Under the pieces are notes generated by a model. The model was not told the DNA's origin and searched no databases. It saw only the letters and a program-made list of their open reading frames with translations. DNA of 64,000 nt from positions 18,990 to 82,989 of the forward strand of contig CAVVII010000028.1 in assembly GCA_963748055.1 (NCBI GenBank), in the 5' to 3' direction. The translations under genes and the position numbers were made by a program. Shown one piece after another: positions 1-52,444 of the stretch (the first letter of the stretch is position 1; each line of letters opens with the position of its first letter). This stretch comes from an uncultured Verrucomicrobiae bacterium (GTDB lineage: Bacteria; Verrucomicrobiota; Verrucomicrobiia; Chthoniobacterales; JAFAMB01).

Positions 1-945
1 GCCGCCGAGCTTCCAGAGGGCGGGCCGAGCAAAAAGCAAAAAGGTCACAAATGCGGAAACCGGATTTCCAGGCAACCCGAAAACGAGCGTGCTTCCCAAT
101 CGCCCAAACATGAAGGGCTTGCCGGGCTTCACCGCAACCCTCCAGAGATCCAACTCGGCACCGAGCTTTTGCAAGACAGGTTTGACCAAATCCTTTTCGC
201 CAACTGAGACGCCGCCGGCAACCACCATCACGTCGCAGGTTCGCGCCTGTTCGAAGCTCTTTAAGTGAGCTTCCTCCGTATCCGGCACAATATCGAAAAT
301 CCGAATGTCAGATCCGGAGCCGGCCACAAGATCCGCGAGCATGATCCGATTTGTTTCGTATATTTCTCCCGCACCGATTGGATCGCCTTGCGACCGCAGT
401 TCGCTCCCGGTCGCGAGAATGGCAACACGCGGACGCCGAAAGACCAGCAATTCGTCCATGCCCTGCGAGGCGATCGCGGCTAGTTGCGGCCCCCGGAGAA
501 CACTCCCTACGCACACTATCTTTTGGCCTTCGCAAAGGTCGCCACCTCGTACCCGGATGTTCTCCCCGACGGTTACGCTCTCACGCACCAGGATAGCTCC
601 ATCCCGGAGATCCGCGTCCTCCTGCATGAGCACAGCATTGGCACGTCGAGGTATGGGTGCGCCAGTATAGATGCGAGTCGCCCGGCCCGACGCGACGTCC
701 AGCCCAAGATCCGGGCCGGCAGCTTGCTCTCCGGCGACTATCAGCCGTGCGCCTCGAACCGCTTCCTCAGCCCGAACCGCATAGCCGTCCATGGTAGAGT
801 TGTCGAACCGAGGCAGGGCCACAGTAGCAACAACGTCCTGCGCAAGAACCCTGTCTCGACATTCCCAAATCGGTACACTTTCGAAAGCCGGTGATGGCAC
901 CGACTCTAACACCCGTTTCAAAGTCTCTCGTTCGCTCAGGAGCAT
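1..945 (-). CDS. moeA: Molybdopterin molybdenumtransferase MoeA, 5' part only (3' end lies off the window)
   Basis: The minus-strand frame is open from the ATG (cat at 943-945; alternative TTG at 949-951) to the window edge. It is absent from the ORF track because there is no stop inside the window. It mirrors 51499-52444. The N-terminus MLLSERETLKRVLESV...PRFDNSTMDGYAVRAEE is MoeA-like. Unlike the right copy it lacks the extra base, so ...GARLIVAGEQAAGPDLG...IYTGAPIP reads in one frame. Confidence 0.75.
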   Translation of the reverse strand, partial: MLLSERETLKRVLESVPSPAFESVPIWECRDRVLAQDVVATVALPRFDNSTMDGYAVRAEEAVRGARLIVAGEQAAGPDLGLDVASGRATRIYTGAPIPRRANAVLMQEDADLRDGAILVRESVTVGENIRVRGGDLCEGQKIVCVGSVLRGPQLAAIASQGMDELLVFRRPRVAILATGSELRSQGDPIGAGEIYETNRIMLADLVAGSGSDIRIFDIVPDTEEAHLKSFEQARTCDVMVVAGGVSVGEKDLVKPVLQKLGAELDLWRVAVKPGKPFMFGRLGSTLVFGLPGNPVSAFVTFLLFARPALWKLGG

Positions 946-1129
946 AGCCAACCAAAACGCAGTCCTGCAGAAGAAGCAAAGCCTTAGCCCGTCCCACCCC
1001 GGTTTGACGGCTCGCCGAGCAAACCAGTTCGCTACTACAAACGTCAAACTGGTGCTGGAAGCTCCCACCTCGCGCCTTGCCGGCGGCCCATTTTGTCCGC
1101 AACACTATACCTGCTATTTCGGCAGGACA

Positions 1130-3631
1130 CTAAGGCGAAAGCTTCAGAACTTGCTTGATTCGCAGATCCCTGGAGGACGCTCCGACGGCGATCCCGTATT
1201 CTCCCGGATCGGTCCTCCAGTGACCGGATGCAGAGTCGAAGCAGGCAAAGGATAGTCGATTGAGCCTGACGGTTATCTCTTTGGACTCGCCAGGCGATAG
1301 AAATACCTTCTCAAATCCCTTCAGCTCTCTGAGGGGCCTCGCAACCGTCGACTGCTTCGCCTCGACATAGAGTTGCGCGACTTCCGCTCCCGCTCGATCC
1401 CCGATATTTCGGACCTCGAATGAGACGTTGACTTCGTCGCGATCGGCAGACCCACTCTGGTCAATTTTAAGATTGGAGTACTCAAATTGGGTGTACGAGA
1501 GCCCAAACCCGAACGGAAACAACGGGTCGATCTCGAAATGATCATATCCCCGGTAGCCGACAAAAATCCCTTCCTCGTACCGGACATTTTCGCCGTCAGT
1601 GTCGGACGGATAAGACTTAAACGCCGGATTGTCGGTTTCTCTGGCTTCAAAAGTCACCGGAAGCTTGGCGGACGGGTTTACGTCGCCAAAGAGGATTTTA
1701 GCGATCGCATTCCCTCCCTCCTGACCCGGATACCAGGCGTGCAGGAGAGCGGGCACCTTGTTCAGCCACCGGTGCATATCGATGTTCCCGCCCGAATTCA
1801 GGATAACGATGGTATTCGGATTTTTCTCCGCGACGCCATTGACAAGATCATCCTGTCCATCCGGGAGTTGGAAGGTGCGATCAAAACCCTCACCTTCGGT
1901 CCCGTTGTCGAATCCAACACAGACAATCGCAGCATCGTATTCTCGAATGGCGTCGGGAACTCTGAGTGACGCCCAACCGAACTGTGCAACGGCACCTCCC
2001 CCACCGCTATTCTTATATTCCACTCGCAACCGATAGATTCGGCTCGCCTCCAGGGACTTTGTGGCGACGACAGGCCGCGCCGCGTGATCGGCCCAATCAT
2101 CAATGATCAATTCGTCGTCGAGAAAAACTCGAATTCCAGCGTCCGCTCGCGCGCGAAAAACGTATGGGGATGAGTCGTTCGCCCGTATCACTCCAGTCCA
2201 GCGGGCGGTGAATTGCGTCGGTAAACTACCGAGCGGAGGGTTCGCGGAACCCCAATCGAAGTTAATTCGTTGATCAACCCGATCGAGGATCGCGGCGCCT
2301 GATAGCGTCAGGTTGGAAAAATATTCTGCTCGCAACCCGTCAGATAATTTTCCGGTCTGATCTTCGTGTTCATACTGCGAAGTCCCGAAATTGCCGACGC
2401 CGACATCGAAATAATCTACGGCCGTATCCGGCCTCTTGTTGTTGGTCAAGCCATCAAGCACACTCACTGCGTAAAACGGCGTGACATAGGAACTTCCCCA
2501 GCCGGTAGGCACGCCAGGTTGCGCGTCAGGTCCGAGCACGGCGATTTTCTTGATCCTGGTCTGATCAAAAGGCAAAGTCTTTTTCTCGTTCTTCAGCAGC
2601 ACGATACCCTCCTCAGCGACCGCCAACGCCGTCTGGCCGCTTTCCGGATCATTTTCCGGAATCGATGGATCCTTCTGCGGACGATCGAGAAATCCCATTC
2701 TGACGATCATTCGCAAAATTCGACGCACTTTGTCGTTGATCTGTTCTTCTGTGATCTCGGCGGATCGCAAAGCTCGGAGCAATTTTTGCGGGTTCATCCA
2801 CTCGCCGGTCGGCATTTCCAGGTCTAAACCGTTACGAACCGGCCCCAACGTGTTGTGAGTGGCACCCCAATCCGACATCAGAACGCCGTCGAATCCCCAT
2901 TCCGCTTTCAGCACCAGATCATTCAGAAACTCGTTCTCCGTACAGTACTGACCATTCACTTTGTTATACGCATCCATCACGGCGCCGACCTTCGCTATTC
3001 GAACTGCCGCATCGAATGCGGGCAGATAGATCTCCCGCAAGGCTCGCTCGCTGACAATGACGTTGATAATCTGGCGATTAATCTCCTGGTTGTTAGCGGC
3101 GAAATGTTTCGCCGTCGCGACCACTCCCTGACTTTGGACTCCCTGAATAAAGGGAACGACCAGCTGCGCTGCTAAATATGGATCTTCCCCTGCGATATAT
3201 TCAAAATTCCTCCCGCAGATCGGGATGCGGTTGATATTTACGCCGGGAGCTAGCAAGACATGAATGCCACGTGCACGACAGTCCCGGCCCATCGATTCAC
3301 CCTCCCTGGCAGCAAGAGCCCGATTCCAGCTCGCTGCCAGCGCGATCCCGCCTGGGTAACGAGTGCTCGGCGTATCCCGCCGGACTCCGATCGGCCCGTC
3401 CGACATGCGAATCTCCGGCACGCCGAGCCTGGGAATCGGTCGAATTGACATCGCGTTGACCCCGCCGATGTAATCGAGCTTCTCTTCCAGGGTCATTCCG
3501 AGCAAAATCTTTTCTACACGTGTTTCGCCGAATTCTGCCGGTGATCCGTGAGTTGGGACGGAACAGTTAATCAACAGCCCGGTGAACAGGCATAACGTGC
3601 GAATCGATATCGCATGTATTTCCGCTATCAT
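1130..3631 (-). CDS. GH3 beta-glucosidase with inserted PA14 domain, secreted
   Basis: The ORF is 852 aa. The likely start is the internal MIAEIHAISIRTLCLF... (signal-like) at 3631 rather than 3688. GH3 blocks are KHFAANNQE, GFDGVLMSDWGA and a C-terminal FGFGLSY. The PA14-like segment is LRAEYFSN...FTARWTG...IRVFLDDELIIDDW. Confidence 0.9.
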   Translation of the reverse strand: MIAEIHAISIRTLCLFTGLLINCSVPTHGSPAEFGETRVEKILLGMTLEEKLDYIGGVNAMSIRPIPRLGVPEIRMSDGPIGVRRDTPSTRYPGGIALAASWNRALAAREGESMGRDCRARGIHVLLAPGVNINRIPICGRNFEYIAGEDPYLAAQLVVPFIQGVQSQGVVATAKHFAANNQEINRQIINVIVSERALREIYLPAFDAAVRIAKVGAVMDAYNKVNGQYCTENEFLNDLVLKAEWGFDGVLMSDWGATHNTLGPVRNGLDLEMPTGEWMNPQKLLRALRSAEITEEQINDKVRRILRMIVRMGFLDRPQKDPSIPENDPESGQTALAVAEEGIVLLKNEKKTLPFDQTRIKKIAVLGPDAQPGVPTGWGSSYVTPFYAVSVLDGLTNNKRPDTAVDYFDVGVGNFGTSQYEHEDQTGKLSDGLRAEYFSNLTLSGAAILDRVDQRINFDWGSANPPLGSLPTQFTARWTGVIRANDSSPYVFRARADAGIRVFLDDELIIDDWADHAARPVVATKSLEASRIYRLRVEYKNSGGGGAVAQFGWASLRVPDAIREYDAAIVCVGFDNGTEGEGFDRTFQLPDGQDDLVNGVAEKNPNTIVILNSGGNIDMHRWLNKVPALLHAWYPGQEGGNAIAKILFGDVNPSAKLPVTFEARETDNPAFKSYPSDTDGENVRYEEGIFVGYRGYDHFEIDPLFPFGFGLSYTQFEYSNLKIDQSGSADRDEVNVSFEVRNIGDRAGAEVAQLYVEAKQSTVARPLRELKGFEKVFLSPGESKEITVRLNRLSFACFDSASGHWRTDPGEYGIAVGASSRDLRIKQVLKLSP

Positions 3632-3800
3632 CGTTCTTCGCCCAGGCTGTTCATGCAGCGAGTCTAGCCACGCAACCGCAGCAAGCAAACGATCGCTCTC
3701 TCCAGACGGCCGAGTACGCGCTCTAAAGCGACTTTGGGAGCTTCCGATCTTTTGCCTTTTTTCGAACGTTACGTTAAACGTGGAGACTCAGGTAACTTCA

Positions 3801-5195
3801 ATGAGCATCTGTCCAACCAAAGTCAGTGATAATGGCCGTTTCCTGGTCAAAGCCGATGGCCAGCCCTTTCTCTGGTTTGCGGATACCGCCTGGGAACTTT
3901 TCCATCGTCTGAATCGTGAGGATGCCGCCCACTATCTTCAGAGGCGGGCCGAACAGAAATTCACCCTCGTCCAAGCGGTTATCCTCGGAGAGTTTAATGG
4001 AGTCCTGGAACCGAACGCCTATGGAGATCCAGCCCTCCTGGATGCCGATCCGACGCGTCCAAACGAGCCATATTTCCAACATGTGGACTGGATTCTAGCG
4101 AGCGCAAACCGGCTGGGTTTGACGCTCGGAGTATTGCCAACCTGGGGAGATAAAGTGGGTAACACCCACGGAGACGGTCCCCGCATCTTCAACGCAAAGA
4201 ATGCGCGGACCTACGGCGAATTCCTGGGGAGAAGATACAAGAACAGCGATCTCGTCTGGATCATCGGCGGAGATCGATTGGTCGACGACGAGGAGAAGTT
4301 CAGGATTTGGCGAGCGATGGCTGAAGGGTTGCGAACCGGCGATGAGGGACTCCACCTGATTACGTTTCACCCGCGCGGCGGCGACGATTCAATCTCAAGC
4401 TCCTCCCATATATTTTCGAATTCAGACCCGGTGCTCGATTTCAACATGAGGCAAAACGGCCATGGCGATCGCGCTAACACCTGGTCAAGAATTTTCAGCG
4501 ATTACTCGCTGCAACCCGTGAAACCAGTCCTGGATGGGGAACCGCTCTACGAAGACCATCCAATCAGCTTCAACGCTGCAGAGCACGGCTATTCAAACGC
4601 GCACGATATCCGCCGTTTCCTTTACCTTGATTTGTTCGCCGGGGCTTTCGGCCACACCTACGGTCACCACTCGGTATGGCAATTCCATACTCCGGAACGA
4701 GGCGAAGGTGTTAATAAACCCGTCAGCTACTGGCGAGAAGCTTTGAACAGTCCCGGTGCAAACGACATTCGGCATGCTCGCGCACTGCTCGAAAGCCGCC
4801 CATTTCTATCTCGGATACCTGATCACTCGCTCATTCACGCGTTTGCGGTTCCCTACGCAATCCCGGGATCCGGAACCAAGCTTATGGCCTCGACACGAGG
4901 CGAGGACGGTTCTTTCGGCATGATCTATCTATCCTGTGCGCGCGCATTCACAGTGAACCCACGAGCGATTTCCGGCGAAAACCTCCGGCTCTGGTGGTTC
5001 AACCCACGTGACGGCACCAACTTTGACCTTGGCGCGGTCGAAAAGCCGAGACTTATTGAAATCATCCCACCCTTCCAGGGGGAAGATATCGACTGGGTAT
5101 TGGTTATTGATGACGCCGCTCGGCGATATCCGCAGCCGGGCGAGGAACCCTCTGTCGAGCAAGGCGGTGATCACGCTTTTCGTTTGAAATCATAG
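3801..5195 (+). CDS. DUF4038 / GH140-like glycoside hydrolase with C-terminal collagen-binding-like domain
   Basis: The start is ATG at 3801 (MSICPTKVSDNGRFLVKADGQPFLWFADTAWELFHRL...). The GxPFxWxxDTAWxLF block with RAEQKFTLVQAVIL is typical of DUF4038. The 537-aa track ORF (from 3582) overlaps the divergent GH3 start, so its extension is not credible. Confidence 0.7.
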   Translation: MSICPTKVSDNGRFLVKADGQPFLWFADTAWELFHRLNREDAAHYLQRRAEQKFTLVQAVILGEFNGVLEPNAYGDPALLDADPTRPNEPYFQHVDWILASANRLGLTLGVLPTWGDKVGNTHGDGPRIFNAKNARTYGEFLGRRYKNSDLVWIIGGDRLVDDEEKFRIWRAMAEGLRTGDEGLHLITFHPRGGDDSISSSSHIFSNSDPVLDFNMRQNGHGDRANTWSRIFSDYSLQPVKPVLDGEPLYEDHPISFNAAEHGYSNAHDIRRFLYLDLFAGAFGHTYGHHSVWQFHTPERGEGVNKPVSYWREALNSPGANDIRHARALLESRPFLSRIPDHSLIHAFAVPYAIPGSGTKLMASTRGEDGSFGMIYLSCARAFTVNPRAISGENLRLWWFNPRDGTNFDLGAVEKPRLIEIIPPFQGEDIDWVLVIDDAARRYPQPGEEPSVEQGGDHAFRLKS

Positions 5196-5197
5196 GG

Positions 5198-5293
5198 AGC
5201 TTTCTAGCCCGCAAAAATGACGCAAAGGTCGAAGCGATGAGCTCATTGCGGGCTAGGAAGCTCTTAAACAGACGCTGGGCGTCTGTTTAAGAG
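5198..5293 (+). terminator. Two adjacent strong hairpins downstream of the GH140-like gene
   Basis: The first hairpin pairs 5198-5214 agctttctagcccgcaa with 5246-5262 ttgcgggctaggaagct (17 bp, 1 mismatch, about 31-nt loop). The second pairs 5261-5275 ctcttaaacagacgc with 5279-5293 gcgtctgtttaagag (perfect 15 bp, 3-nt loop). The U-tract is weak (agcctgttt). Confidence 0.45.
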
Positions 5294-5398
5294 CCTGTTT
5301 AATATAAATGAATTAAGACAAACTGTTACAGAACTCCTCTCTAAAAGGCAGTCGAATTTTCCGGCGTAGCCGGAGAATTCTGCTGCCTGAGCCCAAGG

Positions 5399-5668
5399 CT
5401 AGCCCGGCTTGACCACCAACGGTACCTTGTCACCGGGCCCCGCCATCGGGTCACCGTTGCAGACGACGTCCAGGCGCGAACCGGTACGCGCTTTACTGCG
5501 TTCGAGATTAAGACCTGTCGAAACAATCTCGGCGACATTCTCCAATGCGTCACTCTGAAGACGCACCAAAACCGAATCTATTGATTGCTTTTCGACGCTA
5601 ACAACTGTTGCGAGAATCGCCTGCTTCACATTGCCTGTTCGGTGCACGTGCCGGAACCGGTCGTACAA
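5399..5668 (-). CDS. Hypothetical protein (weak call, TTG start)
   Basis: The ORF is 89 aa with protein-like composition but no ATG start, no recognisable motif and no clear RBS. Confidence 0.25.
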   Translation of the reverse strand: MYDRFRHVHRTGNVKQAILATVVSVEKQSIDSVLVRLQSDALENVAEIVSTGLNLERSKARTGSRLDVVCNGDPMAGPGDKVPLVVKPG

Positions 5669-5706
5669 TCGGGTTATTCCGGTTGCGATTTTCAGGCCCT
5701 CTGGAG

Positions 5707-5910
5707 ATAAGGAATGCGTCTCGCATTATTTCTTACCGTGAGTAAGGCGTCTCGCCTTACCGCCCCCGCACGTACCCCCCGGAATACTCCGGTTTGAGTA
5801 GGAAACGAGATGCGTTCAATTACGGAAGAGGTAAGGCGGGACGCCTTACTCACTTTGAGAGGTAAGGGGAGATGCACTTACTTACTGCGGAGGTAAAGGC
5901 AAGTCGCTCT
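5707..5910. repeat. Array of 4-5 short palindromes with consensus GAG-GTAAGGCG-N3-CGCCTTAC
   Basis: Perfect copies are 5742-5760 gtaaggcg tct cgccttac and 5831-5849 gtaaggcg gga cgccttac. Degenerate copies lie at 5707-5736, 5862-5881 (gtaag...cttac) and 5893-5912 (taaag...cttta). The array sits immediately 3' of the GH36 gene. Confidence 0.6.
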
Positions 5911-5920
5911 TTAGTTTTAG

Positions 5921-8050: not shown

Positions 8051-8075
8051 TTGTATCGAGACTGGAATTTAAGTT

Positions 8076-8113: not shown

Positions 8114-8165
8114 GTCCCCCAAACTTTCGGCGCAGCGAACCGCTGCAGAATTCCTTCGACTCCTA

Positions 8166-10174: not shown

Positions 10175-10195
10175 GATTACAGGCCTTTCCGAGTT

Positions 10196-16495: not shown

Positions 16496-19766
<3,271 letters not shown>

Positions 19767-21624: not shown

Positions 21625-21850
21625 CGTCGGCGTGATCGAAGGTACTCCGCCGTCTGATCGCATTTTCAGTCCCGCGCAAAGTCTCTTCCTATCTTTGCTA
21701 ACTTTGCTGCCTTCTGTTCAAAATCTCTTCGGTTCCTTTTGTGGTGTCGACGTGATGCCTACATTTTGCAAGTCTACGAACGCCAGATCGAGTAACCTTC
21801 GATCACGCCGACACGCCGATCCGCCGAACCGCCGACACGTTCCCCCACGA
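21625..21850. repeat. Composite dispersed repeat, locus 1 (reverse-oriented modules A+B at 21625-21745; forward modules B'+C at 21793-21850)
   Basis: The revcomp of 21625-21745 aligns at about 80% identity with 27560-27680 (ccacaaaaggaa.cgaaga..tttgaacagaa.gcagcaaag...tcagacggcggagtacc.tcgatcacgcc). Positions 21797-21845 align with 27663-27715 (cgatcacgcc.acacgccgatccgc...gccgacacgtt). The internal 19-bp inverted repeat gtcggcgtgatcgaaggta (21626-21644) pairs with 21794-21812. Confidence 0.75.
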
Positions 21851-27559: not shown

Positions 27560-27720
27560 CCCACAAAAGGAAGCGAAGACATTTGAACAGAAAGCAGCAA
27601 AGATCACAAAGATTGGAACAGAATTTTGGGCGAACCAAAAGTGCGGTCAGACGGCGGAGTACCTCCGATCACGCCCACACGCCGATCCGCAGACACGCCG
27701 ACAGGCCGACACGTTTCTCC
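27560..27720 (+). repeat. Composite dispersed repeat, locus 2 (modules A-B-C in one orientation)
   Basis: See 21625-21850. This copy lies immediately after the GH13 stop codon and marks the left edge of the decayed island. Confidence 0.75.
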
Positions 27721-28927: not shown

Positions 28928-29127
28928 AAATAAATAAGATCGGTCGGTTTGGTTATTGCTTTAGTGAAGTTGTGTTAATGGATGTATTGCTTTGTGATTC
29001 GGGTTGTGTCCGACGAGTGCTTAAGCGCCCTACAATGTTATTTGAGAGCGTTATCCTTATTTGCTGCGACTTGTAGTGGCTCTAACACTACAGCCCGTGA
29101 ACCATTCAGCGCCAGAGCGCCACTGTG

Positions 29128-32100: not shown

Positions 32101-32685
32101 TCGGTCGAAGCAAGCCGTCGGTGATGGATCGCGCCCGCCCCTTAGGAAGCGCTCCAGATAGTCCGACACGGGATGAAGCTCCGAGTTTTGGAAATGTTGT
32201 GAGCAGTGCCATTCGATAACCTGAGAATCCTGGTCAACTGACGCGCTCGCGGATTCGCCGGCCGCCGTCAAGGAAGCGTCACTCGCCTGTGCCTGCACAC
32301 GCTGCGTGAGTGTCTGCACGAGGCGCGACTTGCCCAAGCCAGGCTGCCCCACGACGAGGAGGACTTGGCCCATCCCCTCTTGAGCCTGCTCCCACCGATC
32401 TTTCAGCAAACTGAATTCGGTATCGCGGCCCGTCAGCGGCGTGAGCGCGAACGGTGGGTGGGCTTCGGATTCGCCTCGACCACCGGAAACAGACTTCGTT
32501 CGTTGCTCCCTGACGCATTCGTGCGGATTTGATCGGACGAGTTTGAAAGGGTTCACAAGTCCCTCCTTACCGCCCGGCATAACCCGTAACGACACTCGCG
32601 CACCGGGCTTATCACAAATCCACCCGATGGTGTCGAGATGACGCTGATACTCATTGGAACGTGAAGTGTAAATCGATTCCCGCAT
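29128..32685 (-). pseudogene. STAND-type P-loop NTPase (AAA_16) + TPR array + C-terminal PP2C/SpoIIE phosphatase domain, broken by at least 5 frameshifts
   Basis: Consecutive ORF pieces in different frames are 31909-32685 (Walker A GQPGLGKSRL), 31415-32212 (LLVVEDLHWIDASTLEFL), 31441-31707 (LPQTLQELVMVRLDRM), 30498-31478 (AQLAATLGREFDYELL plus the helical region), 29918-30718 (TPR-like) and 29128-29967. The last piece begins SFTDGFTMPDLADAAAVLENL and then carries a full SpoIIE domain: LGGDTIGYH, LIDVTGHGLDAALL, SGGHPP, LLIFSDGVFE. Shifts lie near 31990, 31540-31600, 31487, 30633 (G-run) and 29930. Confidence 0.8.
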
Positions 32686-33018
32686 CGTGGCGCCATGGCC
32701 GCCGCTCTGTCTAGCCCGAAAAGATAGTAGACGACTCTGATCAAAAACGCGCTACCTTGCTCTTTCGTTGAATCTCGATTCAACGCAGTTGCTGAATTGC
32801 CCCGGCGTTAAATCCACGCCGATCGAAGTCCTGGTCTAGGCGCTCAATTTCCGCTAGGCCCTCATCCCGATCAGCGGGAGAGTGATCCTCTAGCCAATCC
32901 CAGCGCTGCCGCCATTTGCGCGTAACGCTTATCCGGCTGTTGTTTTATTGGACTTCAAGATCATTAGGGTTCGAGCTATCACCCAAGGGCAAGGATAAGA
33001 AGCGCTCTTGCGCGCGGT

Positions 33019-35773: not shown

Positions 35774-36646
35774 CTAGGGCGTGTTTGTAAATCATCTATG
35801 TGAGGCGAAAGGTGAGGAAGCGATGGCAAGGCAAACAAAGCCCAGGAAAGTTTCGGCAAGTTTGTCATAGCGAGTGGCGACTCGGCGGTAGCGCTTGATT
35901 CTTTGGAAGAAGTTTTCTACCCGATGACGACGCCGGTAGAGCTTTGCGGAGAATGGTACAGCCGTAGTGCGGTTAGCACGCCAGGAATGCAGGTTTTAAC
36001 TCCGTTGGCGGCCGCTGTCTGTCTGAGGGTGGAGCTATCATAGGCTTTGTCGCCAATAAGGGTAGAATTCTCTGGCAGGCAGTCCGTAAGCTTTCCTGCC
36101 AAACAGATGTCGGCTTCGTTCCCACTGGACAAGGCAACGATAATGGGTTGCGAGCGGGCATTGACGACAACATGAATCTTGGTGTTTAAGCCCTCCCTTG
36201 GTGCGTCCCATGGCTTGTGGAGCTTGGCCGCCGGCCGGATTGGACCCGTCAGCATGAACCTTGACGTGGGTACTGTCGACAAAAAACCACCCCGGAGCGA
36301 GCTCCGGCCCGAATTGCGTCAGCACTTTCTGTAGAGTGCCGCGATGACACCAACGACGGAAATACTGGTACACAGAGTTCCAGCGGGCCTGTGGCCGATC
36401 GATAGCTCTCCAACTGCATCCCTCTGTTAGTACAAAAAGAATACTTTCAAGCACGACGTACATTGACAAAGAAGGCCGACCAGCTTTATTATCTTTACTG
36501 CCGTTCCAGGGAGTCGCTTTCTATGGAAATTATAGCTTCCGCTATCTTCGGCAGAAGCGCCTTCACTTTTGGTCGTATTCGCATCATCCGTTTTATCTCC
36601 AGCTAGGCGCATTGTCCATAAAGGAAGATTTACAAACACGCCCTAG
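35774..36646 (-). mobile_element. IS5-family insertion sequence (two-ORF IS427/IS1031-like type), 873 bp, perfect 20-bp terminal inverted repeats
   Basis: 35774-35793 ctagggcgtgtttgtaaatc is the revcomp of 36627-36646. The outer CTAG is palindromic, so it may be part of the inverted repeat or a 4-bp target duplication. The interior encodes DUF4096 + DDE_Tnp_1-like transposase pieces. Confidence 0.85.
35800..36575 (-). pseudogene. IS5-family transposase, reading frame broken in at least 3 places
   Basis: The frames run in order MMRIRPKVKALLPK..., then KAGRPSLSMYVVLESILFVLTEGCSWRAI...GRTKGGL, then NTKIHVVVNARSQPIIVALSSGNEAD...LIGDKAYDS, then AVPFSAKLYRRRHRVENFFQRIKRYRRVATRYDKLAETFLGF. The GGL/NTKIH switch may be a programmed frameshift site. 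The other switches are disruptive. Confidence 0.75.
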
Positions 36647-43468: not shown

Positions 43469-44059
43469 TTTGGTGTCAGTATTGAAGTTTTGCAGCACGC
43501 TAAATGCACCGAGCCAAGGATCGTTCCATGATTCGCAGGAAGGGTTCTTATTCACTCGATTGAGGTAGTGTCCCGTCCTCTCCCTCTCCGCGGTAAGAGG
43601 CTCTGCTGGACGAATTTACCCGCGGCAGCGGGCTCTTACTCACGTCGTATCCCTCGGATTCGATCTTTCGTGGAGAGGATTAATGGGGTGCAGTGTCTCG
43701 GTGGACGGTAAAACGCGCGGGGGGGAAGACGAGGAGTCAAAGCGCGTGCCGTCGGGCGCGGTAATTAGCACCGCCAGACGATCCGAGCCAGGATACGAAA
43801 GTTCCACCTCGGACGAGCTGAGTGTCTGCCGTTCGCCGCTATTGCCGCCAGTCTTCACCAGCATGGTCAGCGCTTCGACTTGGTTCGTCGCGCAGACACA
43901 CGCCCCAGAGACCTGTTGGTAGCCGCAGGAAGGTAAGATGACCGACTTCGCCGGGGATGTCCGGCGCGAAAACGCTATTGAAGTCGGTGAATTTCTTTGG
44001 ATATTAAAATTAGTGGCTTTTGACGCCCCCTTGTAACCCCTCCCCCCAAGGTAACTCTC

Positions 44060-45385
44060 ATGACTACTACCCGTAACGGCCTTGCCGTTCTAGGCCCTGC
44101 GTTAGCGTTCGCTCTTTTAATGAGCAATTACGTCTGCAATTCGAAGGCGCAAATCAAACCGGAAGCGTTCCCACTCGCCGCTTTGGCGGCCGGCCCGGCA
44201 ACCTATGGCGTCGATGACGGCACGCACATCACGCTGTGGTCACGGGCCGCCACACAAGCCCGAGCAGATGCCCTGGTCAAAGCTTACAATGCGACGCACA
44301 AGAACCACATCGACGCCACGTACGTCCCCACCGACGACTACCAGACCAAGGTCGGCGCTGCGGCGGCCGCTGGAGGGCTGCCGGACCTGTTCTCGGCCGA
44401 CGTCGTGTTCATGCCGAACTGGACCTCGGCGGGGCTCTTCACTGACCTGACGGACAAGATCGCAACGCTGCCATTTGCTGCAAACATCGCCCAGGGTGCG
44501 ATCAATGTGTCGACCTGGAAGGGCAAGAAATACGGTCTACCATTCGTCGTCGATCTTTCCGTTTGGATGTACAACAAAAAGCTGTTTAAGGCAGCCGGCC
44601 TCGACCCCAACAAGCCGCCGACTACTTTGGTTGAGTTCGCGGCTGACGCCCGTGCCGTCCAGAAGCTTGGAGGAAATGTCCACGGCACCTTCTTCGGCGG
44701 CGACTGCGGTGGCTGCGAAGTCTTCACCTGGTTCCCGATCGCATGGGCCGATGGCGAAACGGTGATGAACCCTGAAGGGACCGAATCGCACCTCAACAGC
44801 GCAGAAAACAAAGCCATCTATGCGACCTTCCGCACCCTTGTTGAGGATGGCACCGCGCTGATGCCCGATACCAAGACCGAGACCGGACCTACATGGACCG
44901 GTTATTTCCCAAAGGGCAATATCGGCATCATGCCGATGCCAGCCAGTCTTCAGGGCATGGCTAACTCCTCGCTTGCGGATGCAGATATCGGGGTTACCCC
45001 CATTGCCGGCCTTAAGGGTGGGCAAGCCACACTAGTCGGAGGCGACGCCATCGGGATTTCCAGGGATAGCAAGGCGGCCAACGCGGCCTGGAACTTCCTG
45101 GCCTGGATGGTCGGTGACGAGGCGCAGATCGAGGTTGTGGCCAAGGGCGGCAACGTCCTTGCGCGTCCGGACCTCGCCAACAACAAGTACAGCGCGGCTG
45201 ACCCGCGCCTCGTGACCTTCAACACGATCGCGGCAAAGGGTCAGACGCCCTTCGCCAAGGCCTTTGGGGCGACGTTTAACGATCCTCAGGGGCCATGGCT
45301 CGTGCTGCTCCGTGATGCGGTGTTCGGCGACGCGAGCAAAATCGACGCGGACAACGCAGCCGTGAACACCTCTCTCAATCCGTAG
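44060..45385 (+). CDS. Sugar ABC transporter substrate-binding protein (family 1), high-GC block
   Basis: 441 aa with a signal-like N-terminus and blocks typical of CUT1 binding proteins (GLPDLFSADVVFMPNW, WKGKKYGLPF). Confidence 0.8.
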   Translation: MTTTRNGLAVLGPALAFALLMSNYVCNSKAQIKPEAFPLAALAAGPATYGVDDGTHITLWSRAATQARADALVKAYNATHKNHIDATYVPTDDYQTKVGAAAAAGGLPDLFSADVVFMPNWTSAGLFTDLTDKIATLPFAANIAQGAINVSTWKGKKYGLPFVVDLSVWMYNKKLFKAAGLDPNKPPTTLVEFAADARAVQKLGGNVHGTFFGGDCGGCEVFTWFPIAWADGETVMNPEGTESHLNSAENKAIYATFRTLVEDGTALMPDTKTETGPTWTGYFPKGNIGIMPMPASLQGMANSSLADADIGVTPIAGLKGGQATLVGGDAIGISRDSKAANAAWNFLAWMVGDEAQIEVVAKGGNVLARPDLANNKYSAADPRLVTFNTIAAKGQTPFAKAFGATFNDPQGPWLVLLRDAVFGDASKIDADNAAVNTSLNP

Positions 45386-45469
45386 CTGATCCGCGGCGCA
45401 GTGCGGTTCCTTCCTCGCGACCCCTCACCAAGTTGACGACCCTCGAAAGAAAGGGCGCCTTCAGTGGCC

Positions 45470-46411
45470 ATGACTCCGGCGACACCTGAACACCGAACGG
45501 CGCCGGCCGCTCGGTGGCGGCTTAACCGATGGCGATACCGTCAGCTGATGGGCGTCGCCTATGCGGCGCCGACCGTCGTTTTCGTGGCCGTCTTTTTCAT
45601 AACGCCCCTGCTGCTCGTCGCCCGGATGTCCCTGAGCAGCTGGCCCCTTTTGACGGGAAACGGCGGTCTGAATTTCCCCAAGAACTACCTCTCCATCTGT
45701 AAGAACGCTCTGTTCGGGCCGGCGGTCGTCTTCACAATCAAATATACGCTCATCGTCACGGTCCTGCTTATCGGACTGGGCCTCGGTCTGGCCCTTCTGG
45801 TCCAGGAGCGCGGGCGATGGGTGGACATGCTGCGCACCGTAATCCTGCTGCCCGTTTCACTTGGTCTGGCTGCGGCATCGCTGCTGTTCTGGGGTTTCTA
45901 TTCGCCCTCAATTGGGCCGATCAGTCCAATTCTCGAACAGCTGGGACTGATCCACGACCCAATCTCATTTCTTGGAACGTCCCTGAGCGCGCTGCTGTCC
46001 ACGAGCTTCTTGATCGTCTGGAAATACACTGGCCTGTACATGCTTATCCTCCTTGTCGGGCTGCAGGCCATTCCGGATGATCTCTTTGAGGCGGCCGCCC
46101 TTGACGGCGCCAGCCGTATTCAAGTCTTCCGACACATAACGTTGCCGCTGCTCCGGCCGTCGCTTGCGCTGGCCCTCATCCTTTGCGTGACCGGTTCTCT
46201 CCTCGCGTTTGACCAGTTCTACATCTTGACCAAGGGCGCGCCGGACAACAGCACAGTCACGGTCGTCCAACTGATCTACCGCGAGGCGTTCCAAAAACAG
46301 AACCTGGGCACTTCCGCGGCCATCTCGATCATGGTCCTGGTGGCGCTCCTTGTGCTTAACGCGGTCCAGTTCCGCTACCTCCGCAGCTCAGAACCGGGTC
46401 GGAAGCGATGA
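45470..46411 (+). CDS. Carbohydrate ABC transporter permease (MalF-like)
   Basis: The ATG is at 45470 (the track has GTG at 45464). The EAA loop is FEAAALDGASRIQVFRHITLP. Confidence 0.85.
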   Translation: MTPATPEHRTAPAARWRLNRWRYRQLMGVAYAAPTVVFVAVFFITPLLLVARMSLSSWPLLTGNGGLNFPKNYLSICKNALFGPAVVFTIKYTLIVTVLLIGLGLGLALLVQERGRWVDMLRTVILLPVSLGLAAASLLFWGFYSPSIGPISPILEQLGLIHDPISFLGTSLSALLSTSFLIVWKYTGLYMLILLVGLQAIPDDLFEAAALDGASRIQVFRHITLPLLRPSLALALILCVTGSLLAFDQFYILTKGAPDNSTVTVVQLIYREAFQKQNLGTSAAISIMVLVALLVLNAVQFRYLRSSEPGRKR

Positions 46412-47241
46412 CCACGACGCGCACGGGAACGCTAGGCCGCCGCACCCCGTACTATGTATTGACGGGGGGGTTGGCGATCATCTTCCTGTTCCCCCTGCTG
46501 TGGAGTCTGGCGGCCTCCGTAAGCCCGCAGGCCTCCACCGGACAGGTGAACGGCTTCGGTCTGGGGAACTACACGACGCTCTTCAACTACGGTGCAGGGC
46601 TGGTCCAGTTTCTGCTAAACAGCGCGTACGTAGCGCTCCTCACGGTCGCGATCACCCTGGCGGTGTCGACCCTTGGCGGGTACGCTTTCGCCAGGTTCAG
46701 GTTTCCGGGTCGAGACGCGTTGTTCCTGTTGACGCTGTCGATCTTGATGGTCCCGTACGCGACGCTGCTCATCCCGCTATATGTGCTCCTCAATGGCCTT
46801 GGGCTGCAGAATTCCCTGATTGGCCTCAGCTTGGTGCTGGCGATGTTCCAGCTCCCGTTTGCCACGTACATGATGCGTATCTCGTTCGAAGCGGTGCCGC
46901 GCGAGCTGGAGGAATCCGCACTGGTGGACGGCTGCGGCACGTTCAGCGTCCTGTGGCGAATCCTCCTTCCCTCGGTGCGCCCCGGGCTCATCACAGTGGG
47001 TCTGTTCGCCTTCCTGGCGGCATGGAGCGACTTCTTCGCTCCCCTCATCCTGCTAACCGACAGCGCAAAGCAGACCCTGCCGCTCGCGGTGGCCAACCTG
47101 CGGCAGCAAACGATGGGCGCCATCGACTACGGTGCCACGGAGGCTGGCGTCGTGGTGATGGCCGTTCCTTGCCTGATCCTGTTCCTGCTCCTGCAACGTT
47201 ACTACGTGCGGGGTTTCATGTCCGGAGCCGTCAAGGGTTAA
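46408..47241 (+). CDS. Carbohydrate ABC transporter permease (MalG-like)
   Basis: 277 aa. The start overlaps the upstream stop (ATGA). The EAA loop is EESALVDGCGTFSVLWRILLP. Confidence 0.85.
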   Translation: MTTTRTGTLGRRTPYYVLTGGLAIIFLFPLLWSLAASVSPQASTGQVNGFGLGNYTTLFNYGAGLVQFLLNSAYVALLTVAITLAVSTLGGYAFARFRFPGRDALFLLTLSILMVPYATLLIPLYVLLNGLGLQNSLIGLSLVLAMFQLPFATYMMRISFEAVPRELEESALVDGCGTFSVLWRILLPSVRPGLITVGLFAFLAAWSDFFAPLILLTDSAKQTLPLAVANLRQQTMGAIDYGATEAGVVVMAVPCLILFLLLQRYYVRGFMSGAVKG

Positions 47242-47462
47242 CCCCGCGCCGGGGCTGAGGCGTGCGAAAATCCGAGATTTCGGTCCTCGCTCGCATCATC
47301 GGGACAAGATTCATTATGCCCCTCTCTACCGGCGAGATTCTCGTGACGCAACCACTGCAAGGAAGCATTCTACTGGTTCGGCCTCAGGCCGAAGGATTGG
47401 TGTAGAGGACATCTTGATTTCCGTTCCAGCCGTGCAATGGATGAGGAGACAAGGAAAAGGAC

Positions 47463-48314
47463 ATGATCACACCAGCAAGGACATTCAAAATTGGCGGCGA
47501 TCTGGAAGTAAATCGCCTTGGATTTGGAGCAATGCGACTGACGGGCAAAGGCATTTGGGGCGAACCGAAGGATGTCGACGAAGCAAAGCGAGTTCTGAAG
47601 CGTGCAGTCGAACTGGGAGTGAATTTCATCGACACTGCCGATAGTTACGGACCCGCAGTCAGTGAGCGGTTGATCGGCGAGGCACTTTCTCCCTTCCCAA
47701 AAGGCCTCGTGGTCGCGACCAAGGCAGGGTTGACCCGACAAGGACCCGACCAGTGGCTGCCTGTTGGCCGACCGGAGTACCTGGCGCAGCAGGTCGAAAT
47801 GAGTCTGCGTTTTCTGAAGACGGAAGTGATCGACCTCTGGCAATTGCACCGCATCGATCCTCAGGTGCCCGTAGAAGAGTCGTTGGGAGTGATTGGCAGA
47901 CTGCGTCAGCAGGGCAAAATCCGCCATGTTGGTCTCAGTGAGGTGAAACCCGCTGAGATCGAGCAGGCTCGCAAGGTCATAGACATCGTCAGTGTGCAGA
48001 ACCTCTACAACGTAGGCGACCGGCAGCATGAGGACGTGCTGGAGTATTGCGAGAAACATGAGCTCGCTTTCATACCCTGGTTCCCGGTGGCAGCCGGCAA
48101 ACTGGCCCAGTCCGGCGGAAAGCTGGACACGATTGCAAAACGCCACGGCGCCACCGTGGCACAGCTTTCGATCGCATGGCTGTTGCACCGCAGCCCTGTC
48201 ATGCTGCCAATAGCGGGGACCTCGTCGGTTGCTCATCTCGAGGAGAACCTCAAGGCTGCGGCGATCTCCATGTCGGATGCTGAACTAAAAGAGATCGAAA
48301 GCGCCGCTGCATAA
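47463..48314 (+). CDS. Aldo/keto reductase (paralogue of 19805-20686)
   Basis: 283 aa with GFGAMRLTG, VNFIDTADSYG, IDLWQLH and IAGTSSVAHLEEN. Confidence 0.88.
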   Translation: MITPARTFKIGGDLEVNRLGFGAMRLTGKGIWGEPKDVDEAKRVLKRAVELGVNFIDTADSYGPAVSERLIGEALSPFPKGLVVATKAGLTRQGPDQWLPVGRPEYLAQQVEMSLRFLKTEVIDLWQLHRIDPQVPVEESLGVIGRLRQQGKIRHVGLSEVKPAEIEQARKVIDIVSVQNLYNVGDRQHEDVLEYCEKHELAFIPWFPVAAGKLAQSGGKLDTIAKRHGATVAQLSIAWLLHRSPVMLPIAGTSSVAHLEENLKAAAISMSDAELKEIESAAA

Positions 48315-48385
48315 GCGTCTTGCCGATCGCGATACGATCTCGCTGGAGGTGAGCTGGCCGGGCCTCTTTGACAGATGTCTCAGCT

Positions 48386-48643
48386 TCACGGGCCCTTATT
48401 CTCTACAAACGGAAGTTGCCCTGCCCGATCAACACGGAGCAGGTAATAAAACTCTCCGAGGATAACCGCTTGGACGAGGGTGAATTTCTGTTCGGCCCGC
48501 CTCTGAAGATAATGGGCGGCATCCTCACGATTCAGACGATGGAAAAGTTCCCAGGCGGTATCCGCAAACCAGAGAAATGGCTGGCCATCGGCTTTGACCA
48601 GGAAACGGCCATTATCACTGACTCTGGTTGGACAGATGCTCAT
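48386..48643 (-). pseudogene. 5' fragment of the DUF4038/GH140-like gene, truncated at the repeat junction
   Basis: It mirrors 3801-3995 (65 codons from the ATG at 48643). After ...AVILGEF the sequence becomes unrelated (YYLLRVDRAGQLPFVENKGP) and stops at 48386. Confidence 0.85.
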
Positions 48644-51600
48644 TGAAGTTACCTGAGTCTCCACGTTTAACGTAACGTTCGAAAAAAGGCAAAAGATCGG
48701 AAGCTCCCAAAGTCGCTTTAGAGCGCGTACTCGGCCGTCTGGAGAGAGCGATCGTTTGCTTGCTACGGTTGCGTGGCTAGACTCGCTGCATGAACAGCCT
48801 GGGCGAAGAACGATGATAGCGGAAATACATGCGATATCGATTCGCACGTTATGCCTGTTCACCGGGCTGTTGATTAACTGTTCCGTCCCAACTCACGGAT
48901 CACCGGCAGAATTCGGCGAAACACGTGTAGAAAAGATTTTGCTCGGAATGACCCTGGAAGAGAAGCTCGATTACATCGGCGGGGTCAACGCGATGTCAAT
49001 TCGACCGATTCCCAGGCTCGGCGTGCCGGAGATTCGCATGTCGGACGGGCCGATCGGAGTCCGGCGGGATACGCCGAGCACTCGTTACCCAGGCGGGATC
49101 GCGCTGGCAGCGAGCTGGAATCGGGCTCTTGCTGCCAGGGAGGGTGAATCGATGGGCCGGGACTGTCGTGCACGTGGCATTCATGTCTTGCTAGCTCCCG
49201 GCGTAAATATCAACCGCATCCCGATCTGCGGGAGGAATTTTGAATATATCGCAGGGGAAGATCCATATTTAGCAGCGCAGCTGGTCGTTCCCTTTATTCA
49301 GGGAGTCCAAAGTCAGGGAGTGGTCGCGACGGCGAAACATTTCGCCGCTAACAACCAGGAGATTAATCGCCAGATTATCAACGTCATTGTCAGCGAGCGG
49401 GCCTTGCGGGAGATCTATCTGCCCGCATTCGATGCGGCAGTTCGAATAGCGAAGGTCGGCGCCGTGATGGATGCGTATAACAAAGTGAATGGTCAGTACT
49501 GTACGGAGAACGAGTTTCTGAATGATCTGGTGCTGAAAGCGGAATGGGGATTCGACGGCGTTCTGATGTCGGATTGGGGTGCCACTCACAACACGTTGGG
49601 GCCGGTTCGTAACGGTTTAGACCTGGAAATGCCGACCGGCGAGTGGATGAACCCGCAAAAATTGCTCCGAGCTTTGCGATTCGCCGAGATCACAGAAGAA
49701 CAGATCAACGACAAAGTGCGTCGAATTTTGCGAATGATCGTCAGAATGGGATTTCTCGATCGTCCGCAGAAGGATCCATCGATTCCGGAAAATGATCCGG
49801 AAAGCGGCCAAACGGCGTTGGCGGTCGCTGAGGAGGGTATCGTGCTGCTGAAGAACGAGAAAAAGACTTTGCCTTTTGATCAGACCAGGATCAAGAAAAT
49901 CGCCGTGCTCGGACCTAACGCGCAACCTGGCGTGCCTACCGGCTGGGGAAGTTCCTATGTCACGCCGTTTTACGCAGTGAGTGTGCTTGATGGCTTGACC
50001 AACAACAAGAGGCCGGATACGGCCGTAGATTATTTCGATGTCGGCGTCGGCAATTTCGGGACTTCGCAGTATGAACACGAAGATCAGACCGGAAAATTAT
50101 CTGACGGGTTGCGAGCAGAATATTTTTCCAACCTGACGCTATCAGGCGCCGCGATCCTCGATCGGGTTGATCAACGAATTAACTTCGATTGGGGTTCCGC
50201 GAACCCTCCGCTCGGTAGTTTACCGACGCAATTCACCGCCCGCTGGACTGGAGTGATACGGGCGAACGACTCTTCCCCACACGTTTTTCGCGCGCGAGCG
50301 GACGCTGGAATTCGAGTTTTTCTCGACGACGAATTGATCATTGATGATTGGGCCGATCACGCGGCGCGGCCTGTCGTCGCCACAAAGTCCCTGGAGGCGA
50401 GCCGAATCTATCGGTTGCGAGTGGAATATAAGAATAGCGGTGGGGGAGGTGCCGTTGCACAGTTCGGTTGGGCGTCACTCAGAGTTCCCGACGCCATTCG
50501 AGAATACGATGCTGCGATTGTCTGTGTTGGATTCGACAACGGGACCGAAGGTGAGGGTTTTGATCGCACCTTCCAACTCCCGGACGGACAGGATGATCTT
50601 GTCAATGGCGTCGCGGAGAAAAATCCGAATACCATCGTTATCCTGAATTCGGGCGGGAACATCGATATGCACCGGTGGCTGAACAAGGTGCCCGCTCTCC
50701 TGCACGCCTGGTATCCGGGTCAGGAGGGAGGGAATGCGATCGCTAAAATCCTCTTTGGCGACGTAAACCCGTCCGCCAAGCTTCCGGTGACTTTTGAAGC
50801 CAGAGAAACCGACAATCCGGCGTTCAAGTCTTATCCGTCCGACATTGACGGCGAGAATGTCCGGTACGAGGAAGGGATTTTTGTCGGCTACCGGGGATAT
50901 GATCATTTCGAGATCGACCCGTTGTTTCCGTTCGGGTTTGGGCTCTCGTACACCCAATTTGAGTACTCCAATCTTAAAATTGACCAGAGTGGGTCTGCCG
51001 ATCGCGACGAAGTCAACGTCTCATTCCAGGTCCGAAATATCGGGGATCGAGCGGGAGCGGAAGTCGCGCAACTCTATGTCGAGGCGAAGCAGTCGACAGT
51101 TGCGAGGCCCCCCAGAGAGCTGAAGGGATTTGAGAAGGTATTTCTATCGCCTGGCGAGTCCAAAGAGATAACCGTCAGGCTCAATCGACTATCCTTTGCC
51201 TGCTTCGACTCTGCATCCGGTCACTGGAGGACCGATCCGGGAGAATACGGGATCGCCGTCGGAGCGTCCTCCAGGGATCTGCGAATCAAGCAAGTTCTGA
51301 AACTTTCGCCTTAGTGTCCTGTCGAAATAGCAGGTATAGTGTTGCGGACAAAATGGGCCGCCGGCAAGGCGCGAGGTGGGAGCTTCCAGCACCAGTTTGA
51401 CGTTTGTAGTAGCGAACTGGTTCGCTCGGTGAGCCGTCAAACCGGGGTGGGACGGGCTAAGGCTTTGCTTCTTCTGCAGGACTGCGTTTTGGTTGGCTAT
51501 GCTCCTGAGCGAACGAGAGACTTTGAAACGGGTGTTAGAGTCGGTGCCATCACCGGCTTTCGAAAGTGTACCGATTTGGGAATGTCGAGACAGGGTTCTT

Positions 51601-52444
51601 GCGCAGGACGTTGTTGCTACTGTGGCCCTGCCTCGGTTCGACAACTCCACCATGGACGGCTATGCGGTTCGGGCTGAGGAAGCGGTTCGAGGCGCACGGC
51701 TCGATAGTCGCCGGAGAGCAAGCTGCCGGCCCGGATCTTGGGTTGGACGTCGCGTCGGGCCGGGCGATTCGCATCTATACTGGCGCACCCATACCTCGAC
51801 GTGCCAATGCTGTGCTCATGCAGGAGGACGCGGATATCCGGGATGGAGCTATCCTGGTGCGTGAGAGCGTAACCGTCGGGGAGAACATCCGGGTACGAGG
51901 TGGCGACCTTTGCGAAGGCCAAAAGATAGTGTGCGTAGGGAGTGTTCTCCGGGGGCCGCAACTAGCCGCGATCGCCTCGCAGGGCATGGACGAATTGCTG
52001 GTCTTTCGGCGTCCGCGTGTTGCCATTCTCGCGACCGGGAGCGAACTGCGGTCGCAAGGCGATCCAATCGGTGCGGGAGAAATATACGAAACAAATCGGA
52101 TCATGCTCGCGGATCTTGTGGCCGGCTCCGGATCTGACATTCGGATTTTCGATATTGTGCCGGATACGGAGGAAGCTCACTTAAAGAGCTTCGAACAGGC
52201 GCGAACCTGCGACGTGATGGTGGTTGCCGGTGGCGTCTCAGTTGGCGAAAAGGATTTGGTCAAACCTGTCTTGCAAAAGCTCGGTGCCGAGTTGGATCTC
52301 TGGAGGGTTGCGGTGAAGCCCGGCAAGCCCTTCATGTTTGGGCGGTTGGGAAGCACGCTCGTTTTCGGGTTGCCTGGAAATCCGGTTTCCGCATTTGTGA
52401 CCTTTTTGCTTTTTGCTCGGCCCGCCCTCTGGAAGCTCGGCGGC
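48449..52444. repeat. Right arm of the inverted repeat (reverse complement of 1-3995)
   Basis: See the left arm. It differs from the left arm by scattered substitutions (6 amino-acid changes inside GH3, 2 in the GH140 fragment, at least 2 in moeA) and one extra base at 51702. Confidence 0.93.
48813..51314 (+). CDS. GH3 beta-glucosidase with PA14 insertion (second, intact copy)
   Basis: 852-aa track ORF 48756-51314. It is identical to 1130-3688 except S/F, D/N, Y/H, T/I, E/Q and L/P replacements, plus A/T in the probable non-coding extension. Confidence 0.9.
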   Translation: MIAEIHAISIRTLCLFTGLLINCSVPTHGSPAEFGETRVEKILLGMTLEEKLDYIGGVNAMSIRPIPRLGVPEIRMSDGPIGVRRDTPSTRYPGGIALAASWNRALAAREGESMGRDCRARGIHVLLAPGVNINRIPICGRNFEYIAGEDPYLAAQLVVPFIQGVQSQGVVATAKHFAANNQEINRQIINVIVSERALREIYLPAFDAAVRIAKVGAVMDAYNKVNGQYCTENEFLNDLVLKAEWGFDGVLMSDWGATHNTLGPVRNGLDLEMPTGEWMNPQKLLRALRFAEITEEQINDKVRRILRMIVRMGFLDRPQKDPSIPENDPESGQTALAVAEEGIVLLKNEKKTLPFDQTRIKKIAVLGPNAQPGVPTGWGSSYVTPFYAVSVLDGLTNNKRPDTAVDYFDVGVGNFGTSQYEHEDQTGKLSDGLRAEYFSNLTLSGAAILDRVDQRINFDWGSANPPLGSLPTQFTARWTGVIRANDSSPHVFRARADAGIRVFLDDELIIDDWADHAARPVVATKSLEASRIYRLRVEYKNSGGGGAVAQFGWASLRVPDAIREYDAAIVCVGFDNGTEGEGFDRTFQLPDGQDDLVNGVAEKNPNTIVILNSGGNIDMHRWLNKVPALLHAWYPGQEGGNAIAKILFGDVNPSAKLPVTFEARETDNPAFKSYPSDIDGENVRYEEGIFVGYRGYDHFEIDPLFPFGFGLSYTQFEYSNLKIDQSGSADRDEVNVSFQVRNIGDRAGAEVAQLYVEAKQSTVARPPRELKGFEKVFLSPGESKEITVRLNRLSFACFDSASGHWRTDPGEYGIAVGASSRDLRIKQVLKLSP

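Follow-up and report, generated by a model that had tools for sequence, protein, structure and literature searches.

Large inverted repeats isomerise by homologous recombination, as in the flip-flop of the plastid inverted repeat and in the inversions of bacterial chromosomes mediated by rrn operons, insertion sequences (IS) or prophages. In inversion-associated DNA duplication (DDAI), described in 2011 in Helicobacter pylori, a copy of a segment enters a distant locus in inverted orientation and the intervening region becomes inverted, according to later accounts of the original work (Furuta et al. 2011, via 10.1101/2025.09.20.677491, PMC8963470, PMC4671568); the same accounts mention an equivalent staggered-break model for Drosophila inversions (Ranz et al. 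2007). Fold-back or template-switch duplications are presented as head-to-head copies with short spacers (PMC10622511, PMC7467729, PMC3907307). Here we analyse a 64,000-nt stretch (the window, to which all coordinates refer) of a 106,197-nt contig from an uncultured soil bacterium of the Chthoniobacterales (Verrucomicrobiota; CAVVII010000028.1 of assembly GCA_963748055.1), in which a long inverted repeat brackets a 44.4-kb segment. Rearrangements of this kind, inversions bordered by an inverted duplication, are known; the host is new. On balance, and with only a slight lean, we favour a genuine segmental duplication in which two copies of about 8.2 kb, inverted relative to each other, bracket the 44.4 kb in the chromosome of one Chthoniobacterales strain; that a real inversion of the 44-kb segment took place in some lineage is very probable.

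Extent and divergence of the inverted repeat

Positions 1-3998 are the reverse complement of 48446-52444, as found by a repeat search and by base-by-base and global alignment. The search returns two adjoining inverted pairs, 743-3998/48446-51701 (3256 nt, 99%) and 1-742/51703-52444 (742 nt, 99%), which are offset by one base, the coordinate sum being 52445 up to 742 and 52444 past it. The original prediction, made from the letters alone, had proposed an inverted repeat with these two sums around a 44.4-kb segment, and the search and alignment bear it out. It had put the divergence of the arms at 0.4-0.5% substitutions plus one 1-bp indel; the indel is confirmed as an extra C in the right arm at about 51702, and the substitution rate proves to be too low, since the alignment counts 27 substitutions in the visible arms (0.68%; the last at 3932), for an identity of 99.3% over the visible 4 kb. 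A further mismatch lies at 3996, and the likeness stops abruptly past 3998/48446. A chance origin of a 4-kb match at this identity is impossible, and the arms have the length and the identity that flip-flop between inverted repeats needs. The arm-to-arm mirror in GC skew is trivial, as it merely follows gene strand.

The visible part of the left arm (1-3998, minus strand) carries moeA (start at about 951, running off the window at 1 with its frame intact), a GH3/PA14/Fn3-like glycosidase gene of 833 codons (1130-3631, minus strand) and the divergent first 65 codons of a GH140-like gene. The latter, a DUF4038/Apiosidase gene encoding 464 residues (3801-5195, plus strand; Pfam PF13204 1-319 of 320, plus PF12904), is intact and spans the left inner boundary at 3998/3999. 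The part of the right arm that is mirrored in the window (48446-52444, plus strand) holds a second 833-residue GH3/PA14/Fn3-like glycosidase (48813-51314, plus strand), a moeA gene that is frameshifted by the extra C through which the left moeA reads, and a truncated GH140-like open reading frame (ORF; 48386-48643, minus strand) consisting of 65 native codons ending ...AVILGEF and 20 novel codons before a stop. The ORFs and Pfam domains thus agree with the gene content and the inner junction that had been predicted. The 90% protein cluster of the truncated GH140 ORF has one member, from the source contig only.

The arms extend well beyond the visible 4 kb. Protein clusters place both GH3 copies, the truncated GH140 ORF and a full-length MoeA (P0089, 433 residues, with the left-arm alleles T92/L115) on the one 106,197-nt contig, and because second copies of MoeA, the HI0933-like protein and DUF697 are found there by cluster membership, the arms measure at least 8.2 kb, from 48446 to at least 56633, with the left arm reaching at least 4.2 kb past the left edge of the window. 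The earlier size of "at least 4.0 kb" therefore describes the visible part and underestimates the true length. The remainder of the right arm (52445-56633, plus strand; partner off-window) comprises the 3' end of moeA followed on the same strand by nadA (52768-53712), an HI0933-like flavoprotein gene (53709-54891, frameshifted near 54330), an AhpC/Bcp peroxiredoxin gene (54925-55401) and a DUF697 gene (55416/55485-56633). The second HI0933-like copy (P0085, 394 residues) is intact, and the second DUF697, that of the left arm (P0049, 382 residues), matches the window copy except for a 13-residue out-of-frame stretch between two compensating indels; each of the broken copies (right moeA, right HI0933 and left DUF697) has an intact partner. 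The arms differ at 6 of 833 residues in GH3, 2 of 392 in MoeA and 3 of 394 in HI0933, and at none of the 158 in AhpC or the 369 in DUF697.

Past DUF697 lies an rsmA(KsgA)-NUDIX fusion gene (56764-58142, plus strand), the first gene without a second copy on the contig, followed by ACOX (58129-60069) and FadB (60041-62242). No second copy of rsmA-NUDIX, ACOX or FadB was found among the protein-cluster members on the source contig, which places the outer arm boundary near 56.7 kb, and the arms probably extend no more than a few hundred bases past 56633. The rsmA-NUDIX gene encodes a fusion of about 453-455 residues with RrnaAD/KsgA and NUDIX hydrolase domains that is conserved in Chthoniobacterales relatives, including contigs L001 (9658-11025) and L030 (13140-14501) and protein P0058.

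Ancestral gene order and the rearranged junctions

The nearest genomes in a scan of genome contigs are metagenome-assembled genomes (MAGs) of Chthoniobacterales with GH3 identities of at most 80%, and the best metagenome contig reaches 83% amino-acid identity, so that the best matches of the two scans lie at 80-83%. No GTDB species representative is closer to the source MAG than about 80% GH3 amino-acid identity, although NCBI and ENA contain its proteins; the MAG was either deposited recently or stopped by the quality filters of GTDB. The order GH3-moeA-nadA-HI0933-(ahpC)-DUF697-rsmA/NUDIX-ACOX-fadB is kept in more than ten relatives. In contig L046 (MoeA 87%, NadA 95%), GH3 has lacZ'-galK-galT upstream, and these genes share their strand with GH3-moeA-nadA. 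Contigs L070 and L071, which belong to a single ENA assembly and have 86-94% nucleotide identity to the window, end at the equivalents of 3084 and 3083, adjacent bases within GH3, and run in opposite directions; joined, they read SBP-lacI-galK-galT-galE-GH36-GH140-GH3-moeA-nadA-HI0933-DUF697-rsmA/NUDIX-ACOX-fadB-thiolase, where SBP is a solute-binding protein gene. The gene order in L046, in L070 plus L071 and in the more than ten further relatives points to an ancestral state with a single copy of the block, in which the gal/GH36/GH140 side is collinear with the nadA...fadB side. Position 1 of L070 and of L071 (ENA ERZ25039520, contig_134393 and contig_181426) looks as if one molecule had been cut by the assembler or in post-processing, and both contigs are rich in frameshifted gene fragments.

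Against this order, three of the four junctions of the arms can be read. The left inner junction is ancestral: the intact GH140 gene is followed by GH36 and the gal cluster, GH140 adjoins GH3 in L070 too, and an independent contig (L026) spans 728-5249, including this boundary, with 3 mismatches. The right outer junction, DUF697 followed by rsmA/NUDIX, is also ancestral. The right inner junction is novel and runs from the 3' flank of an aldo/keto reductase (AKR) gene (47463-48314, plus strand), the last gene of the spacer, through the five bases AGGTA (48441-48445) to codon 65 of GH140. The left outer junction is off-window. Each arm thus has one ancestral junction and one that is novel, in the left arm presumably so, and the spacer between the inner arm ends (3999-48445, 44,447 bp) is therefore inverted relative to the ancestral order, its gal side being joined to the left arm and flipped relative to nadA...fadB as compared with L046 and with L070 plus L071. 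With S for the 44-kb spacer and Q for the ancestral neighbour of the AKR gene, the window order is ?-arm(rc)-S-arm-rest and the ancestral order Q-S(rc)-arm-rest. The expectation that recombination between the arms would flip the segment gains indirect support from the finding that the spacer is inverted with respect to relatives, and is weakened in that the inversion may stem from the duplication event itself, as in DDAI, and not from later recombination.

The same junctions bear on a plain inverted duplication without inversion, in which the left copy would be the original and the right copy a new one extending through the window end. Intact left GH140, moeA and HI0933 genes, set beside truncated and frameshifted right copies, would suit such an origin. 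One copy should then keep both ancestral junctions, and neither is seen to do so: each arm has one, the right arm being joined to the conserved downstream synteny. In addition, rsmA-NUDIX, ACOX and FadB each occur once on the contig, which sets the end of the repeat near 56.7 kb, and the damaged DUF697 is the left one. We consider this explanation highly improbable, and its version with a repeat of at least 15 kb running to the window end is ruled out by the single-copy rsmA-NUDIX, ACOX and FadB. Also ruled out is the view of the right arm as a decaying new copy, given the derived amino-acid changes that are present in both arms, the damage to left DUF697 and the signs of purifying selection.

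The right inner junction can be compared with an independent contig, L027, which is 99.5% identical over the AKR gene and collinear up to 48440, and which past that point carries a 176-residue ORF with a DDE_Tnp_1_6 domain in place of the arm, that is, the un-rearranged state. The reverse complement of the 10-mer CGGAGCAGGT (CGGAGC+AGGT; six flank and four filler bases) occurs at L027 1111-1120, 24-33 nt past the breakpoint in the un-rearranged strain. This is a post hoc observation, about 0.04 such 10-mers being expected by chance, and it suggests that the filler is a short templated insertion made by strand switching. No long homology is present at the right inner junction, no tRNA, Rfam family or notable hairpin was found at the junctions, and no IS lies at 3999 or at 48445, so that the IS copies at both ends that would mark a composite-transposon-like inversion are missing. 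The right inner junction itself has a 5-nt filler and no IS; the adjoining L027 ORF carries a transposase-type domain, and some IS involvement at this junction is conceivable. The ORF (L027 1088-1566; P0109) may be the ancestral neighbour of the AKR gene. Its DDE_Tnp_1_6 domain is partial, and its family (725 matches of about 170-190 residues, mostly on very short soil-metagenome contigs) represents either IS1182/IS5-like elements, truncated or with two ORFs, or a fragment that was domesticated. A model of IS excision, with an IS end coinciding with the junction, was dropped, the sequence being a 176-residue ORF of a large small-protein family.

The geometry of the repeat, taken alone, would also suit a programmed invertible element driven by a site-specific recombinase, as in phase variation. 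Such elements combine a recombinase gene with short inverted sites; no recombinase, invertase or integrase was found in the 60 ORFs scanned with Pfam, which are most of the larger ORFs of the window, and the arms, 8 kb in length, consist of housekeeping genes. Flipping between them leaves promoter-gene linkage unchanged and alters no gene structure, which gives no reason to suspect a switch, and this explanation is the least credible of those we weighed.

We propose that the block [5' end of GH140]-GH3-moeA-nadA-HI0933-ahpC-DUF697 would have been present once in the ancestor, in the order Q - (AKR ... gal cluster, GH36, GH140) - GH3-moeA-...-DUF697 - rsmA/NUDIX-ACOX-fadB. An inverted copy of the block would then have come to lie just downstream of AKR, at the far end of the 44-kb segment, and the segment between the two copies would have become inverted. 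This could have happened by DDAI, with duplication and inversion in the same event, or in two steps, first an inverted duplication and then a single RecA-dependent crossover between the arms; both lead to the same end state and are indistinguishable here. The four apparently templated bases of the filler suggest a replicative template-switch origin, and the arms could presumably still recombine. The fuller scenario, a breakpoint-resolved DDAI by template switching with the filler as its scar and a 44-kb segment that is still flipping in the soil population, strikes us as rather unlikely.

One chromosome or two strains

Both arms would reside in a single genome, their copies lying on one contig. 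The right inner junction joins points 48445 and 3998, which are both ends of one and the same 44-kb segment; this is to be expected of an intrachromosomal rearrangement and would be very unlikely for a random chimeric read from a soil metagenome. The strain sampled in ERR11523661 (Logan), the source of contig L026, differs by 0.07% from the left arm and spacer and by 0.20% from the single-copy DNA past the outer end of the right arm (rsmA/NUDIX onward); from these two distances to the same strain, the unique DNA flanking the right arm on both sides looks like one background. A genuine duplication is favoured also by its direct fit to the contig, with an outer boundary just past DUF697 and an intact twin for each broken gene, and by the rarity of repeat-less simple inversions in bacteria.

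These observations reflect on pure misassembly, in which a chimeric or fold-back read would have made the 48445/48446 join and the junction would exist in no cell. The junction is supported by the source contig only, the assembly is noisy and long-read-like, and the sequence of L027 differs past 48440, all of which would fit. A ligation chimera from soil should, however, join unrelated DNA and not both ends of one 44-kb segment in inverted orientation, and fold-back artefacts should come without a 44-kb spacer; the filler looks templated from local ancestral sequence; and the right arm has the character of a coherent biological haplotype and not of error noise, with about 9 nonsynonymous to 14 synonymous coding differences from the left arm and 23 transitions to 4 transversions. 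Misassembly of this kind therefore appears improbable.

A number of findings weigh against a duplication within one chromosome. At the sites where left and right arms differ, L026 agrees with the left arm at 20 of 22, and L072 (ENA ERZ14705953; GH3'-moeA-nadA) does so at 17 of 19. By these allele counts the divergence of left from right predates the split of the three strains, and the right arm is an outgroup to the group formed by the left arm, L026 and L072. L026 runs across 3998 without a graph break, which indicates a near-identical strain in which, at least at comparable depth, the right junction is missing. Neither this junction nor the right-arm alleles occur in any independent contig or protein, and at 90% identity or more P0109, the un-rearranged neighbour of AKR, has no relative from any MAG, the deposited one included. 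The arm differences, rich in transitions, look like allelic variation under purifying selection rather than decay. They also fade outward: in the outer 1.7 kb of the arms none of 527 residues differs, as against 11 of 1619 further in, and the absence of any residue difference in AhpC and DUF697 means that the outer arm end is homogenised. Many genes of the contig are frameshifted, including single-copy genes that are intact in near-identical strains, such as rsmA-NUDIX (frameshifted at about 57384 in the contig, intact in P0058 of a near-identical strain), which suggests a noisy long-read consensus. The outer junction of the left arm, finally, lies beyond the window. A mixture of a dominant strain with the ancestral order and a rarer rearranged strain fits the arm phylogeny, the lack of the right junction elsewhere, the pattern of the arm differences, the frameshifts and P0109, and in such a mixture the 0.7% arm difference may largely come from the two arms having been polished with reads of different strains.

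The corresponding explanation is a strain chimera, already raised by the original prediction as an assembly of two haplotypes and now strengthened by the arm phylogeny and by the lack of independent support for the right junction. Two co-occurring strains about 0.7% apart would each have the 8-kb block once, one in the ancestral order and the other with a simple 44-kb inversion whose breakpoints lie downstream of AKR and within GH140. The assembler would have walked from the block of the first strain through the shared spacer into the block of the second, and polishing would have sorted the reads by haplotype; the apparent inverted repeat would then exist in no single genome, and the left arm would stop at the contig end. 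In such a chimera, dominant-strain reads reaching into single-copy DNA would polish the right arm and account for the outward fading, and the compensated double frameshift in P0049, the outermost gene of the left arm, would suggest poor consensus near the contig end. The chimera nevertheless requires a rare repeat-less two-break inversion plus an assembly error, and the contig end must fall in an interval of about 200 nt just past DUF697. The inverted strain would have frameshifted single-copy moeA and HI0933 genes and a split GH140, although frameshifts are common in this contig. The reciprocal product of the junction, a 5'-truncated GH140 protein, was not found in the 90% cluster. The DNA beyond the right arm is close to the left-type strain (the 0.20% given above), though polishing by the dominant strain would explain this too. 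We rank the chimera below genuine duplication and regard it as a serious but less probable possibility.

The frameshifts deserve mention in their own right. The lacZ gene (16496-19748) is split at about 17345, with its GH2 and Bgal_small_N domains in two overlapping ORFs, and an AAA_16-TPR-SpoIIE signalling gene (29128-32685) is in at least four pieces; none of the inspected frameshift sites is homopolymeric. The frameshifts in these two genes, in the HI0933-like gene and in rsmA-NUDIX reflect either indel errors in a long-read MAG consensus or pseudogenes of very recent origin.

Contents of the spacer and comparison with known systems

According to Pfam, the spacer holds, in this order, a GH36 alpha-galactosidase gene, galE, galT, galK, lacI, a sugar ABC transporter, the split lacZ, an AKR gene and a HAD gene, and then msrPQ, an amylase gene, the fragmented AAA-TPR-SpoIIE gene, an IS remnant, ABC cassettes and the terminal AKR gene. 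The IS remnant (36038-36469, DUF4096 domain, IS4/5-type) is the only one in the window. It sits between two stretches with a G+C content of 60-62%, as against about 54-55% elsewhere, which correspond to the fragmented AAA-TPR-SpoIIE gene (29000-32700) and to a sugar ABC cassette of a solute-binding protein and two permeases (44000-47300). An element of about 100-150 nt is repeated inverted at 21626-21770 and 27560-27711 (97 nt at 81%), is adjoined by CGCCGA/CCGACACG-rich short tandem repeats, and brackets a 5.9-kb block with the HAD gene, msrPQ and the alpha-amylase-family gene; it could be a miniature inverted-repeat transposable element (MITE)-like or repetitive extragenic palindromic (REP)-like element. 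Between the GH140-like gene and GH36 (5698-5896) there are an imperfect 71-nt inverted repeat (72%) and about two copies of a 31-nt tandem unit.

The rearrangement would double the dosage of six genes and create redundancy between broken and intact copies. If genuine, it is a clean natural example, outside Helicobacter, of one rearrangement that both inverts a segment and makes gene duplicates, the duplicates being GH3, moeA, nadA, the flavoprotein, the peroxiredoxin and DUF697 genes, whose copies already show complementary decay; it would also leave a long recombination substrate able to keep reshuffling the region. For MAGs there is a caution, as two strains differing by an inversion can give the same picture, and gene-copy counts and pseudogene calls in such a region are untrustworthy without read-level checks.

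Among the known systems, DDAI offers the closest parallels. On the contig, a breakpoint segment recurs, inverted, at the other breakpoint, and the DNA between the copies is inverted with respect to the ancestral order; at the junction one of them is incomplete (the truncated GH140), the duplicated copies are decaying, and the visible novel junction is free of mobile elements. The locus departs from the DDAI examples in the large size of its duplicated block (about 8.2 kb, six genes) and in its host, an uncultured Verrucomicrobium known only as a MAG, as well as in the 0.7% divergence of its arms, in a right arm that is phylogenetically older than the strain split and in a second novel junction that would lie off-window, so that both copies only presumably share one genome. 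With the plastid inverted repeat and the rrn, IS and prophage repeats it shares long near-identical inverted arms around a unique segment, which a RecA-type crossover would invert with the junction sequences unchanged; unlike these, its arms consist of ordinary metabolic genes and not of rRNA, IS or prophage sequences, and their divergence of 0.7% implies little concerted evolution across most of the arm. Fold-back and inverted duplications at double-strand breaks or template switches (PMC10622511, PMC7467729, PMC3907307) resemble it in the inverted orientation of the copies and in a junction without long homology, where a short filler is seemingly templated from nearby inverted sequence, but the spacer in the present case is 44 kb long and is itself inverted.

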